Shown here one piece after another: positions 54,700 through 64,000 of a stretch of 64,000 nucleotides of DNA (position 1 is its first letter; each line of letters begins with the position of its first letter). The stretch is from contig OY759599.1 in assembly GCA_963662465.1 (NCBI GenBank), positions 1,792,001 through 1,856,000 on the forward strand, read 5' to 3'. The stretch is from Desulfatiglandales bacterium. Lineage in GTDB: Bacteria; Desulfobacterota; DSM-4660; Desulfatiglandales; Desulfatiglandaceae. Made by a program: the position numbers and the translations under genes. Under the pieces are notes generated by a model that did not search any database, was not told the origin of the DNA, and worked only from the letters and a program-made list of their open reading frames with translations.

Positions 54700-54778
54700 T
54701 GAAAAGTGAAGAGTGAAAGGTGAAAAGTAAAGGGTAATGGTTGAAGAGGCGTTAACTCTTAACTCTTAACTCTTCACT
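54700..54778. repeat. Facing heptamer arrays (GTGAARR)n ... (TTAACTC)n
   Basis: Partly complementary tandem arrays; the second contains the helicase stop codon. Confidence 0.75.
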
Positions 54779-56814
54779 GTCCGCACCGCCAGGGAACCCA
54801 GGGTCTCCTTAAGGGGTGATGTAAGACCGCGCTTTAAGGACATTCCTTTAAGCCTGTTCACAAACCCTTCCATGTCCATACAATCCAGCAAATGGGCCTG
54901 TCGCCATCCCGATGGAATCTGTGAAGCCCAGCCTCCTTCCCGGATTCGGTTTCGAAGTCTGACCCTGTGTCGAAGGACAATGGCGCGGATTTCAGCAACT
55001 GTGACATCCGTGGGCAACGCTTCGGGTTTTTCCGGCAGGTGCATGCAAAAGCCATTGATTTGCTGGGGTTTCATTCCGGTCCGACGGGTGATGAGCAACG
55101 CCAGAAGCACACCCCAAAGGCTTCCCATAAAGTGAAATAGCCCGAATGATCCGTCTTCAAGAATCACCATGGGGACATCCCCCGGCGCAACGCCCAGGAA
55201 TCGTGCGAAATCCCGGGCCAGACGGCTGCAAATGATGGGTCCCCTGGACAATGTTGTCTTCAAATGCGTATTGGTTGCCGCATCCTTAACCAGAATCCGG
55301 TTCCTTCCAGCCAGGCCCGACACCTTGAGATGTCGACCGCTGAGCAACAGACGGCCCTCCTCTGTTGCCGCCTGGGGAAGGGTTCCCAGCACTTGGCGGG
55401 TATCCTGGTCAACCACTTCAATGTCCCTGGCGCCATCTTCGATATTGGAATGGATGCGCCCTTTTTCAAAGGCTTCTTCCAGTTCATCCCCCATGAAGTA
55501 TCGCGGGCCGCTCCTAATGAGCCAATTTTTGTCAACCAGATGATCCAGGAGTTCGGGCAGCCGTTTCGCCCATGGGGATCCCTCGAGCCAATGGGGCATG
55601 CGGGAAATCATTGCCCTGGCGGTGATCCACCGTCCCGGTGTCTGCATGAGCAAGCTCATACATTGTTGCGCCAGTACCGATGGGCAAAAGCAATAGGGTC
55701 CACCCAGCAGACGACCATTTTGGGCACTTTCAATCAAATGCTCGTATCGCCGGGTTTCCCCGGGGTTGGCGGTTAAACAGCAGACGCGGGCGACCTGATT
55801 TCGTCGGTTTCCCCTGCCGATCCGCTGAAGCAGCGCGGATACATCCGGGGGTGGGGACGCCAGCATAATCAGATCGATGTCCCCGATATCGATGCCCACT
55901 TCCAGGGTGGTCGTGGAAAAGCATAAGCCGGATGTTCCGGTGAGCATTCTCCTTTCCACAAATTCTCGCCGAGCCAGGGCGAGGCTGCCATGATGTAGGA
56001 ATACGGCATCTCCGAAGGGCGGCCGTCCCTTAAACAGGGAAAACAGCATTTCCGCATGGGCGCGGCGCTGTACAAAGGCCAGGATCTTGCGGACTTCGGG
56101 GTTTTTGGACCTGATATCACGCAATTCGCGGGCCAGGGTCCCTGGGCTGTTGTGGATAAAATGTGCTTCAATGGGCCGATTCCCGGGAGACGTTACCATT
56201 TGGCAGTCCGATCCCACATAACGCAGCATGAGCCCCTCCGGGTCCTCAACGGTGGCGGATGAACCGATAACCTGGACTTGCTTTGCAATGCGATGTACCC
56301 GTGAGACCAGGCACGCCAGTTGATCCCCCCGAGGAGTCCCATCCAGTATATGCACCTCATCCAGCACCAAAAAACGCAGCGCCAGGAGCAGCGAAGGCGA
56401 ACGGGACAATATGGAATCAAGGGATTCCGGCGTTGTAACCACCAGGTGGGGAGGATTGGAACCCGATATTTCACGGTGTTCGCCGGTTCGGCGGCCCACC
56501 CGCAGCCCCATGGCCCCAAGGGGCGCCTTCAGGCGTCTGGCAAGGTCGTTGACCAGCGCGCGGGTTGGGGAGATAATCCATCCTGAAAGATGTCGCGGAC
56601 CGTCAAAGGACTGAATCATCTCGGCCATGGGGGCCGCGTAGGTTTCGGTTTTTCCGCTTGCCGTCGGCGAAATGAGCAACACGCCGCGACCCTTCATGAT
56701 CGCGGGGATACCGGCCATTTGAATGGGCGTGGGAGTGCCGAACCGTGCCAGGAAGGCATGCCACGACTTTGGCAGCAAGCCCTTTAATGCGCTGATGGCC
56801 GGCAAATCGTTCAT
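54766..56814 (-). CDS. Lhr-like DEAD/DEAH-box SF2 helicase (BrxHI/SngC-like)
   Basis: Q motif PTPIQ, SPTASGKT, PTRAL, DEVH, SAT, TLEVGIDIG, QRIGRGNRR. Confidence 0.9.
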   Translation of the reverse strand: MNDLPAISALKGLLPKSWHAFLARFGTPTPIQMAGIPAIMKGRGVLLISPTASGKTETYAAPMAEMIQSFDGPRHLSGWIISPTRALVNDLARRLKAPLGAMGLRVGRRTGEHREISGSNPPHLVVTTPESLDSILSRSPSLLLALRFLVLDEVHILDGTPRGDQLACLVSRVHRIAKQVQVIGSSATVEDPEGLMLRYVGSDCQMVTSPGNRPIEAHFIHNSPGTLARELRDIRSKNPEVRKILAFVQRRAHAEMLFSLFKGRPPFGDAVFLHHGSLALARREFVERRMLTGTSGLCFSTTTLEVGIDIGDIDLIMLASPPPDVSALLQRIGRGNRRNQVARVCCLTANPGETRRYEHLIESAQNGRLLGGPYCFCPSVLAQQCMSLLMQTPGRWITARAMISRMPHWLEGSPWAKRLPELLDHLVDKNWLIRSGPRYFMGDELEEAFEKGRIHSNIEDGARDIEVVDQDTRQVLGTLPQAATEEGRLLLSGRHLKVSGLAGRNRILVKDAATNTHLKTTLSRGPIICSRLARDFARFLGVAPGDVPMVILEDGSFGLFHFMGSLWGVLLALLITRRTGMKPQQINGFCMHLPEKPEALPTDVTVAEIRAIVLRHRVRLRNRIREGGWASQIPSGWRQAHLLDCMDMEGFVNRLKGMSLKRGLTSPLKETLGSLAVRTVKS

Positions 56815-61702: not shown

Positions 61703-61712
61703 TTTTCAATCA

Positions 61713-64000
61713 TTATATCTCATAATCATTTGCAAAAATTTCGCTGTCCAGTTTCTTAACCTTATCATATTGTTTTCGAGCGGCCAGCAGTTCGTCGCCA
61801 AGGGTTTCAAAGGCCTGGGCAATGTCCTGGTCGTTCCGGCTTCGGCCATAGATATCCAGGATGCGCTCTTCAAATTCCATCTCGCTCTTGGTTTGTCCCA
61901 GGACCAGATCCACTTCTCCGATCACCAGTTCAAACAGGTTGATGCGTTTGTCGAGTACATCAAGGATATGGTGTTCGGCCGTGTTGTCGGCGCACAGGTT
62001 ATATACGTGTACGGGCCGGGTTTGTCCGATGCGATGGATACGCCCGATGCGTTGCTCAATTTTCATGGGGTTCCAGGGCAGATCATAGTTGACCATGGTG
62101 GAACAGAACTGAAGGTTTCGGCCTTCTCCACCGATCTCGGAGCAGAGCATTACATTGCACCCGTTCTGGAAATTGAGGACGGCCTGGTCTTTTTCGGACG
62201 CGCTCATTTTTCCCTTGAACATGGAAAAGTCGACGCCTGCTTCCGAAAGTCGCTTCCCGATGTCTTCGAGGGTGGCCGTAAAACGTGAAAACACCAGCAC
62301 TTTTTCGCGGCTTACCTTCAATAGCGCCAACAGACGGGCAGTTTTGGCGGTATCGGGGACATAATCGCACAGCCTGGCCAGTTTACCCATCTCCTTTTTG
62401 AAATCGCTGTCCACCCGGGGATGCTCACACAGCTTTAGCAGGGTTTTTCGAACCGCCCCCGGGCTGGAACCGGCTTCCTGCAACAGCAGCCCCAGGGACA
62501 GGCGATTCATGTTGTTTTGAAAGCCTTTGCGCACCAGATCCGTCAGTCTGGCATACAATTCCCGTTCCGCCGGCGCGCCTTCCACCAGGACCGTGACAGC
62601 ATGGCGGGGCGGCAGTTTGATGTCGGCCAGGGCCCGGGTATTGCGAATCATGACCTCCCCGATGAGTCCCCGGAGTTCCTCACGGTTTCTGGGCTGGGTG
62701 GGATCACCGCGCAGCACAAATTGACGTCTGAATGCCGTTTTGGTCCCCAGTTGACCCGGCTTTAACAGGGTCACCAGACTGAACAGATCCATGAGGTTGT
62801 TTTCCACCGGGGTAGCGCTCAGCAACAGCAGAAAACGGCTTTTCAATTCGTTGATAAGCTTCCACCCCACTGTCCTGTCATTCTTCACGTGATGGGCCTC
62901 ATCCACGATAACCATGTCAAACCCGATATGGGTTAACAGGGGTCGGTGATGTTTGTTCCGAGCCAGGGCCAGGGAAGCCACGATCAAATCGTTACTTTTC
63001 CAGAAATGTTCCGGGTCTTGACGTAATTCAGGGGAATCCGTCGATACCGCTTTGATCTGGAATTTTGCCGCCAGTTCCTCGCACCACTGGCTGGTGAGGG
63101 CCGGCGGCGTCAGAATCAGTGCCTTTTTCACCATGCCCCGCATGAGGTATTCCTTGAGCACCATGCCGGCTTCGATGGTTTTTCCCAATCCCACTTCATC
63201 GGCCAGCAACACCCGGCCCCTGAAAGAGCGCATCACCTTTCGGACCGTATCCACCTGGTAGGCGTACTGCTCCACGCCCTTCAAGGTATTGACGCAGATG
63301 AGGTTGTCAAAGTGATCCGCCTGGGAAAATCGGCTCGCCTCCTGAGCCAAAAGGTACTTTTTGATATTGGCCACCTTGCCGGATAGAAAATGCGCATACA
63401 AATCATCCGGGCTCCGGATCAAGGCCGTCATATGGATTTTCGGCGGTTCGGGTTTCGGCGGCGCCTTCGGTTCAGGGTTTGGAAGCTTGGTACGGCCTGA
63501 AGAGGACTGTTTCAATTTGCGTCCGGTTACTTTTTTTTCTTTCGATACACGGGGGCTAACAGGCTTTCCCTTTACCGCGGTTTTTTTCGAGGTTTTGAAT
63601 GCTTTTCCGAATATGCTCCCTGACCCGCCGCTTTTTTTCGACTTTCGGTCAACACCGGACCCAGCCTGCTGGGAAGAAGTCTCTAACTGAGTCCGTAATG
63701 ACAGGACAATCCGCTTGATCATACCGGGATCTATACCCGTCTCTTCAAAAAATAACGTGCTGCACTGAGTGACCTTCTCAAGAAGTGGGAGAACCTTTTC
63801 AAATTCGCCGGTTTTAATAATCCTGAGGCCGTACATGAGGGATTCTTCGGGCGAAAGCGGCCTCAGCTGTTGGAGTTTCTGAAAGCACCAGATGACATTG
63901 TTATCGTCATAACCCTCCTCCATAAGAATCTGCGCCGTCAAACGATAGGCATCCGCGTAATCGGGATGTTTTCGTATTACAGTACGGATCAGATCCAGGG
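61713..64000 (-). CDS. SNF2-family helicase (YqhH-like) with N-terminal TPR; 5' end outside the window
   Basis: LLADEVGLGKT, DEAH, LSATP, GEGRNLQ, DLPWNP, EQRIGRIHRIGQ. The frame stays open to the window edge (LDLIRTVIRKHPDYADAYRLTAQIL). Confidence 0.92.
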   Translation of the reverse strand, partial: LDLIRTVIRKHPDYADAYRLTAQILMEEGYDDNNVIWCFQKLQQLRPLSPEESLMYGLRIIKTGEFEKVLPLLEKVTQCSTLFFEETGIDPGMIKRIVLSLRTQLETSSQQAGSGVDRKSKKSGGSGSIFGKAFKTSKKTAVKGKPVSPRVSKEKKVTGRKLKQSSSGRTKLPNPEPKAPPKPEPPKIHMTALIRSPDDLYAHFLSGKVANIKKYLLAQEASRFSQADHFDNLICVNTLKGVEQYAYQVDTVRKVMRSFRGRVLLADEVGLGKTIEAGMVLKEYLMRGMVKKALILTPPALTSQWCEELAAKFQIKAVSTDSPELRQDPEHFWKSNDLIVASLALARNKHHRPLLTHIGFDMVIVDEAHHVKNDRTVGWKLINELKSRFLLLLSATPVENNLMDLFSLVTLLKPGQLGTKTAFRRQFVLRGDPTQPRNREELRGLIGEVMIRNTRALADIKLPPRHAVTVLVEGAPAERELYARLTDLVRKGFQNNMNRLSLGLLLQEAGSSPGAVRKTLLKLCEHPRVDSDFKKEMGKLARLCDYVPDTAKTARLLALLKVSREKVLVFSRFTATLEDIGKRLSEAGVDFSMFKGKMSASEKDQAVLNFQNGCNVMLCSEIGGEGRNLQFCSTMVNYDLPWNPMKIEQRIGRIHRIGQTRPVHVYNLCADNTAEHHILDVLDKRINLFELVIGEVDLVLGQTKSEMEFEERILDIYGRSRNDQDIAQAFETLGDELLAARKQYDKVKKLDSEIFANDYEI

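Follow-up and report, generated by a model that had tools for sequence, protein, structure and literature searches.

A six-gene operon in a Desulfatiglandales bacterium joins a split RapA-type Snf2 enzyme to a twin-ATPase and Lhr-like helicase core

The last part of a 64,000-nucleotide stretch from a Desulfatiglandales bacterium (contig OY759599.1, positions 1,792,001 to 1,856,000; called the window here) is occupied by an operon on the minus strand, at 54766..64000. The listing of open reading frames (ORFs) of the window reveals six co-oriented genes that encode, in order, a Snf2 ATPase (gene 1), a YqhG-like protein (gene 2), a 290-residue protein (gene 3), two BrxD-type ATPases (ATPases 1 and 2), and an Lhr-like helicase. 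Their junctions are a 10-nt gap followed by overlaps of 4 (GTGA), 4 (ATGA), 8, and 4 (ATGA) bases, just as an initial annotation of the window had described. That annotation counted "at least six" genes; six are real, but the number is exactly six, with the Snf2 gene starting at window-equivalent 64127, 127 bases past the window end. The upstream neighbor encodes a CDP-alcohol phosphatidyltransferase (by Pfam on an orthologue) and the downstream neighbor a Gate-domain membrane protein; genes that we take from their sequences to be amtB and glnK also lie upstream, and both flanks are of the housekeeping type. Extending the genome by 40 kb ruled out a canonical type 2 bacteriophage exclusion (BREX) or Shango locus upstream. 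Given the start at 64127 and flanking genes that belong to neither system, these six genes make up the whole operon, which does not represent the end of a BREX or Shango locus. As the annotation had suspected, no nuclease, methyltransferase, TerB, or Pgl gene lies within or beside it. All six proteins either fall below the NCBIfam cut-offs for named systems or have no match, and neither PADLOC nor NCBIfam holds a full match to a named defense system. The Walker A and B motifs of the four motors are intact, and in both ATPase families they are invariant or nearly so.

Gene 1 (61713..64000 within the window, minus strand; 804 residues) encodes a RapA/YqhH-type Snf2 ATPase with PF00176 and PF00271 domains. 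Its N terminus holds a tetratricopeptide repeat (TPR)-like region and a low-complexity linker where RapA has its tandem Tudor N-terminal domain (NTD). A TPR had been assigned here before; the match is present but stays below threshold (PF13432/TPR_16, E 2e-5), and the N-terminal 276 residues yield TPR-like matches only. One low-depth contig (L003:12488-13114, depth 3.5) skips this TPR-like region and linker, which could be a strain variant or an error. The five best matches of gene 1 among solved structures, by sequence, are all RapA (E 1e-43, against 1e-38 for other Snf2 proteins), the alignment to RapA beginning at residue 249, and the RapA model NF003426 matches with E 2e-70, below its cut-off. 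The chain stops after the motor and lacks the RapA Spacer and C-terminal domain (CTD).

Those missing parts appear to be supplied by gene 2 (60533..61702, minus strand; 389 residues), whose AlphaFold model (predicted local distance difference test score, pLDDT, 89.5) resembles a free-standing RapA Spacer and CTD. At E<=0.001, Foldseek matched the model to RapA alone (4/4 matches, E 7e-6 to 4e-5), the next and unrelated match lying at 0.12. Residues 1-294 align with RapA 712-967 (Z 9.6, root-mean-square deviation (RMSD) 7.0, 236 residues, 11% identity), a region that holds the Spacer and CTD according to the domain list and the D744 contact given in PMC8501970. The alignment spans both domains, precisely the portion missing from gene 1. 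Because the RMSD is high and the identity is 11%, the likeness is a claim at the level of the fold; in a wide fold search coiled coils dominate and RapA stands at rank 47 (Z 7.8). Likewise, the family sequence profile of gene 2 did not find RapA in the PDB, and gene 2 has no sequence match to PF12137 (RapA_C). Modeling thus shows the RapA architecture rebuilt in two chains by genes 1 and 2 together, and the pair is a split RapA-type enzyme, a relationship that the initial annotation had overlooked. Canonical RapA, judged by PF12137, was found in none of the five genomes searched (this one and four relatives).

The remainder of gene 2 contains a RING-like eight-ligand zinc finger (residues 326-363; 60614..60727, minus strand), with the pattern kept in 48 of 55 aligned relatives and zf-C3HC4_3 matching 15 of the 55 below threshold. 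The YqhG-like label of the initial annotation is weakly supported: PF11079 (YqhG; threshold 25 bits) misses gene 2 and matches 3/55 relatives weakly (best E 3e-4), and it is the nearest named Atlas cluster to gene 2, at 0.82. Although this tie to Pfam YqhG is weak, the Bacillus YqhH-YqhG pair has the same gene order as the operon pair. Among solved structures, Escherichia coli RapA/HepA is the closest to the Snf2 core. The operon enzyme differs from it in consisting of two chains, in having a TPR-like region instead of the tandem Tudor NTD, and in its extra RING-like finger; it differs from both RapA/HepA and YqhH-YqhG in being attached to a loader-helicase core. Bacillus subtilis YqhH has been named HepA/RapA and placed among the translocases that interact with RNA polymerase (PMC7385302), and RapA clears post-termination complexes and keeps R-loops in check (bioRxiv 2024.09.28.614012). 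The split-RapA architecture alone leaves the function undecided, because the defense helicase BrxHII has it in one chain.

Gene 3 (59664..60536, minus strand; 290 residues) has no Pfam, NCBIfam, or PADLOC family, although 429 representative relatives were found at E<=0.001. Its model (pLDDT 96) consists of a helical hairpin, an alpha/beta middle domain, and a C-terminal winged-helix-like domain (residues 165-285; 59682..60044, minus strand). The whole protein has no fold match at Foldseek E<=0.001, and for the middle domain only commonplace alpha/beta folds matched, led by a Mediator subunit (Z 9.2), from which no conclusion was drawn. The best matches of the winged helix are those of ORC1/Cdc6 (Z 5.5-6.6, about 80 residues, RMSD 3-4), which, as the Z scores are middling, identify a fold class only. 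BrxD has been described as an ORC/Cdc6 ATPase without DNA-binding domains that possibly loads BrxHI (PMC12839542). Since BrxD lacks such domains and gene 3 has a winged helix, gene 3 would supply this domain in trans, and we propose from the model that it is the DNA-binding subunit of both ATPases.

Both ATPases pass the PF10923 cut-off, in agreement with the twin DUF2791 ATPases noted before. ATPase 1 (58390..59667, minus strand; 425 residues; PF10923 122 bits) keeps K71, D242, E243, and R301 invariant, while ATPase 2 (56811..58397, minus strand; 528 residues; PF10923 91 bits), which adds an N-terminal Tudor domain and linker, keeps K175, D350, E351, and R492. They score 95 and 65 bits against the BrxD model NF033438, whose cut-off is 350. 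The ATPase was held to be duplicated, and two paralogues are indeed present, but the duplication is not a simple one: the two ATPases are about 25% identical across 206-249 residues and, in a quick tree of 106 sequences with weak, unreliable deep branches, form separate old clades with mirrored branching. A recent duplication is thereby ruled out. In the same tree, BrxD (3 rows) and SngB-like ATPases (6 rows) form clades of their own, apart from ATPases 1 and 2.

The N terminus of ATPase 2 (about residues 1-55; 58233..58397, minus strand) carries what its profile matches show to be a Tudor domain of the UvrD/PcrA C-terminal type (UvrD CTD 7egs, E 2e-5, and 6yi2, E 3e-5; PcrA CTD 5dma, E 0.08). 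All 20 aligned relatives keep the domain and have an H-x-x-x-G-x-G region in common, and 11 of the 20 N termini give sub-threshold PcrA_tudor or CarD/Mfd RID matches. The PcrA Tudor binds RNA polymerase via H681, W684, K712, and L714, K712 being needed (PMC5397179). The His equivalent to H681 is invariant (20/20), and the Trp is present here. The target hairpin of such Tudors, [VIL]DxxTGE[VIL][VILT], occurs in RpoB and UvrB (PMC8318588), and this exact motif is present in the host RpoB; the 15231 ORFs contain only one other match. As most RpoBs carry it (PMC8318588), its presence shows merely that a target exists. A single low-depth contig (L003:7060-7394, depth 2) skips this Tudor and its linker and may reflect a strain variant or an error.

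The last gene (54766..56814, minus strand; 682 residues) encodes a superfamily 2 (SF2) helicase that is Lhr-like and related to BrxHI and SngC (PADLOC BrxHI E 5e-65, SngC E 6e-46), with no nuclease domain detected. Its top PDB matches are 5v9x (E 6e-27) and 7lhl (E 4e-26), both of which we take to be Lhr. Mycobacterial Lhr unwinds RNA:DNA (PMC5758891). A hairpin at helicase residues 468-476 (55387..55413, minus strand) resembles the PcrA Tudor target motif but lacks the Gly-Glu, and it is a possible private docking site for the Tudor, though a weak lead drawn from sequence likeness. If so, the operon might be a DNA-repair or fork-rescue machine independent of RNA polymerase, in which the Tudor tethers its own helicase through this hairpin and the Snf2 pair remodels another protein-DNA block. 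A D-x-x-T or similar long-turn hairpin is found in most helicases whose ATPase 2 bears the Tudor, while in BrxHI, SngC, and the giant fusions described below, whose ATPases lack the Tudor, the hairpin is two residues shorter; the loss of the Lys from the Tudor and of the Glu from the hairpin would also fit, as would the crosslinker and ultraviolet (UV) sensitivity of Lhr and YqhH deletions (PMC9841417; PMC10054049), the latter seen as a UV-sensitive yqhH knockout in Bacillus thuringiensis. The correlation of hairpin and Tudor follows clades, however, and is not independent, and two Tudor-clade helicases (L186, L187) have the short hairpin. Moreover, genomes G077 and G111 keep an intact Tudor although no helicase orthologue was found in them, which weakens a role confined to the helicase. 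We regard a polymerase-independent repair machine as improbable; the Tudor may bind RNA polymerase, its own helicase, or something else.

To follow the gene order in other genomes, loci were surveyed with gene 3 as the query, giving 26 genome loci and 11 metagenome loci; eight more (L106-L113), apparent repeats of contigs already counted, were left out. The full six-gene order is present in 8/26 genome loci; in another 5 a contig end interrupts the operon, and what is left agrees with that order. L066 is a five-gene locus: its YqhG-like gene is spread over two frames, and the helicase is missing. In none of the 12 distant genome loci is there an adjacent Snf2-YqhG pair; eight of them keep gene 3 with the ATPases and helicase (2 with a third ATPase), and four have no adjacent helicase. 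Among the metagenome loci, three have six genes (one cut by a contig end, one with the proteins of L063), two are compatible fragments, two lack upstream DNA, one is a distant core, and one has no real match; in L095 the pair is cleanly absent, and in L097 it is shortened to one 535-residue ORF. The titles of the six-gene loci name Desulfatiglandales, Desulfobacteraceae/Desulfobacterales, Deltaproteobacteria, and one Myxococcales metagenome-assembled genome. The operon recurs in sediment bacteria. The joining of the two modules proposed earlier is thus borne out by a conserved gene order, the surveys found neither a canonical locus nor a match to a named system, and in other genomes too the pair can be linked to the ATPase and helicase genes. 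The join is real but lineage-limited, as the pair and the four-gene core mostly live apart.

The core, genes 3 to 6, is shown to be co-inherited. A sample of 301 genomes includes 14 with a full-length ATPase 1 match (E<=6e-20), and the gene 3 profile (E<1e-10, with 2 further weak partial matches dropped) finds exactly the same 14. At E<=0.001 ATPase 1 reaches 22 genomes; the additional ones comprise four Shango-like single ATPases, two divergent twin loci, a fragment, and a weak match. Gene 3 stands apart from the ATPases in 7 of the 14 genomes, which are all seven genomes of one class. ATPase 1 is present in 7/7 genomes of this class, where gene 3, the ATPase pair, and the helicase each sit in separate housekeeping neighborhoods, presumably including hpt, efp, and rpe, judging from N-terminal sequences. 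A helicase orthologue is found in 5/7 of these genomes and in 4/5 other genomes where it is non-adjacent. In the phylum holding L072, ATPase 1 orthologues (E<1e-90) occur in 31/151 genomes. On these counts the core is patchy overall yet stably inherited in some lineages, even when dispersed.

The Snf2-YqhG pair, in turn, is an independent unit. The gene 2 profile matches 14/301 genomes of the phylum, and 11 of the 12 Snf2-YqhG regions fetched contain an intact pair with no adjoining core gene, the 12th being a remnant; similar pairs occur in three other genomes and on two plasmids. At L160:2420-10128, such a pair immediately follows another Snf2 (DUF3670) together with a SWIM-finger gene, and thus the split RapA joins other Snf2 cassettes too. 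A single branch (100/99) separates 15 six-gene-type Snf2s from the free pairs, from which it follows that the pair and core were joined once. The operon could accordingly hold two functionally separate modules, neighbors by one past event and merely co-transcribed. The free pairs, the single join, and the clean loss in L095 speak for this, as does the finding that only 2 of the 14 core-bearing genomes have a YqhG-like gene, unlinked in one of them. On the other hand, the join outlives many relocations: 13/13 close genome loci with upstream DNA retain the YqhG-like gene, the Snf2, ATPase 1, and ATPase 2 trees branch alike, and the junction between the modules is a GTGA start-stop overlap. We consider mere co-location the least likely of the explanations weighed here.

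The flanks of the six-gene loci are mostly distinct housekeeping surroundings and include gyrA with ddl, an XerD-like integrase, a penicillin amidase, upp with priA, an HhH-GPD glycosylase, an amylase, and IS1595. When 73 of 77 flanking ORFs from 13 loci were compared with PADLOC, 7/73 matched, all as single genes and with no control set alongside; Pfam identified six of the seven as AAA_14, DUF3368, a small methyltransferase, an amylase, Uma2, and an HhH-GPD glycosylase. No BREX, Shango, or DISARM protein was among the 73. Cargo of prophages was ruled out for gene 3, as none of 65 pattern matches in viral contigs was confirmed; nor were gene 3 relatives found on plasmids, where ATPase 1 has only distant BrxD/SngB-type matches.

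Distant and variant cores were seen as well. The same genome holds a second, distant core at L034:9292-19371 (G000:C1, about 3.722-3.732 Mb), after an rlmKL-like gene, with a gene-3 relative, an ATPase, an inserted GNAT toxin-antitoxin-like pair, a second ATPase without a Tudor, and a giant Lhr fusion that recurs in L044-L047, L114, and L115. At L053:7953-14000, a 265-residue unknown protein, a BrxD-like ORF without Walker A, a second ATPase, and a 185-residue unknown protein precede a Snf2-Mrr nuclease fusion that replaces Lhr. L076:8950-16952 and L077:5492-13879 are cores in which three ATPases accompany one or two lead proteins, immediately following what is presumably a glmM-like gene, and the proteins P0125 and P0127 resemble fusions of glmM with gene 3 or read-throughs. 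A divergent gene 3-ATPase-ATPase unit at L052:8006-13359 is arranged head to head with the gene for a radical SAM-HhH protein, close to what we take to be a recN-like gene; no helicase was found in that genome. Different core clades may do different jobs.

Around the operon itself, the 67-nt spacer after the helicase gene (54699-54765) includes short direct repeats, with three copies of AAGAGTT followed by TTTTCAC-like units, but shows no clear hairpin; the gene beyond it points the same way and may share the transcript. No shared upstream operator was found in 13 upstream regions (best motif in only 3/13), and no joint deleting the whole cassette was found in contigs of four other runs, among the matches listed. 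In a zone 12-22 kb past the window end lie a split pair that we take to be transposase-like (L001:13176-15067) and two large ORFs, presumably of the non-ribosomal peptide synthetase type (L001:15750-L002:3408). About 33 kb past the end, a 1527-residue protein (L002:14324-18907) presumably represents a type IIG restriction-modification fusion, judging from its motifs, and is the closest defense-like gene seen on that side of the operon.

Comparison with named systems places the operon outside all of them. Type 2 BREX likewise has a PF10923 ATPase directly followed by an Lhr-like helicase, the BrxD-BrxHI dyad, whereas no pglW, pglX, brxC, or pglZ was found in the operon, among its neighbors on both sides, or among the 73 flanking ORFs of the 13 loci. 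The operon also has two ATPases that miss the BrxD cut-off by a wide margin and that branch apart from BrxD in the quick tree with its weak deep branches, and adds a Tudor and a separate winged-helix subunit. Shango consists of three genes, SngA, SngB, and SngC. It too combines an unknown lead protein with a BrxD-type ATPase and an Lhr-like helicase and has no methyltransferase, and the SngB and SngC models match. However, none of the six operon proteins matches TerB or SngA, the lead protein here is the 290-residue winged-helix protein, and SngB-like ATPases form their own clade. The highest-scoring models for gene 1 are the Snf2 helicases BrxHII, DrmD, and DUF499 (BR), in which a RapA-like Snf2 is combined with inactive restriction endonuclease and coiled-coil alpha/beta domains (PMC12839542). 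Those are single chains in methyltransferase-based systems, in contrast to the split operon enzyme without a modification gene. DISARM is not supported either, with DrmABC and its methyltransferase absent from the flanks and the DrmD-like score of gene 1 below the cut-off. From the UvrD/PcrA C-terminal Tudor, which the operon shares in profile match, invariant His, and host RpoB motif, it differs in standing at the N terminus of an AAA+ ATPase and in having mostly lost the K712 equivalent. No description of the operon was found in the literature searched, which largely excludes subscription papers; YqhG, DUF2791, and Shango have 0 occurrences in the main text of PMC12839542, whose supplementary neighborhood tables may list the module. 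The operon is not type 2 BREX, Shango, DISARM, or canonical RapA but an unnamed variant on a known ATPase-helicase dyad.

These relationships could mean that the operon is a stand-alone anti-phage system, sister to Shango and to the BREX-2 accessory pair. In that case, invading or replicating DNA would be recognized by the winged-helix protein together with the twin ATPases, which would load the helicase, while the RapA-like pair, like DrmD or BrxHII, would stall phage replication or transcription without cutting DNA. Defense proteins are the closest named relatives of 4/6 operon proteins, the operon is patchy and positionally mobile, sister cores bear nucleases, similar pairs occur on two plasmids, and a few flanking ORFs match PADLOC. 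Those flanking matches are nonetheless single genes, six of them with ordinary Pfam identities, with no background rate to compare. In addition, nuclease, methyltransferase, TerB, and Pgl genes are absent in and beside the operon, its components are retained after it breaks up, and the gene 3 query found nothing in viral contigs or plasmids. We consider a defense role less likely than genome maintenance, though it is the strongest of the alternatives. The initial annotation had left open a choice between anti-phage defense and a repair or transcription-coupled machine; context favors the latter, but only moderately, so that upkeep of the host's transcribed DNA is moderately more likely than phage defense.

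Our preferred explanation, held tentatively and at somewhat less than even confidence, is that the operon encodes a nuclease-free genome-maintenance machine that clears transcription complexes. A loader-helicase machine acting at stalled or post-termination polymerase is favored because three parts independently point to transcription complexes, namely the RapA-type motor, the docking domain of the UvrD type, and a helicase with tested relatives that unwind RNA:DNA, and also because the operon contains no effector and its parts persist where they have become unlinked. We infer every physical step of the mechanism. ATPases 1 and 2 would form a hetero-oligomer of the ORC/Cdc6 type, to which gene 3 would provide in trans the winged helix lacking in BrxD-type ATPases. 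The Tudor would tether this loader to a stalled or post-termination RNA polymerase via the beta-subunit hairpin, the split RapA would dislodge the polymerase, and the loader would then put the Lhr-like helicase on the exposed strand, where it would open the R-loop or RNA:DNA hybrid. In most lineages the four-gene core would act alone; the Desulfatiglandales-type branch would have acquired the split RapA a single time, as an optional motor upstream.

Several observations weigh against the clearance of transcription complexes. In the Tudor, the K712 equivalent, as placed by the profile match, is Lys in 1/20 relatives and Pro here. RapA architecture plus a Tudor is also found in the defense helicase BrxHII (PMC12839542), and the DrmD models match gene 1 better (E 6e-78) than the RapA model does (E 2e-70), all below cut-off. 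The operon Snf2 is without the tandem Tudor NTD that RapA uses for clamp opening, a role given in a section title of bioRxiv 2024.09.28.614012, and Lhr-like proteins without Domain 4 form a group separate from the tested Lhr enzymes (PMC8301817). The second core of the same genome ends in a 1971-residue protein in which Lhr is combined with a Cas4-like nuclease and with an SF1 (AAA_11/12) helicase. As for inheritance, the seven dispersed genomes belong to a single class and are not independent, gene 3 occurs with changing neighbors in 11/151 genomes of the window's own order and is thus patchy, and the pair has been lost or has decayed in three close loci (L095, L097, L066). The G+C content of the operon is 54.5% against 49.5% for the genome, as high a value being reached by 22/871 equal windows; at third positions its genes (0.57-0.64) are the same as the two neighbors.

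As a minimal system free of methylation and nuclease genes, the operon offers a setting for the helicase-loader idea in BREX-2 and Shango, since its BrxD-type ATPases are accompanied by a putative DNA-binding subunit, by a docking domain, and by a helicase. The fold match would make YqhG-like proteins the C-terminal half of RapA, and so work on YqhH/HepA alone would mean work on half an enzyme. It is doubtful, though conceivable, that the operon represents a new bacterial pathway of transcription-complex clearance, built from a two-paralogue ORC/Cdc6-like loader, a detachable winged-helix subunit, a Tudor, an Lhr-like helicase, and a two-subunit RapA. If it does, the BrxD-BrxHI and SngB-SngC defense dyads would be offshoots or sisters of a housekeeping machine, and YqhG would be the missing half of the Bacillus RapA. 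If the Tudor binds RNA polymerase, the operon would give lineages that lack canonical RapA a new way to clear stuck polymerase and R-loops.

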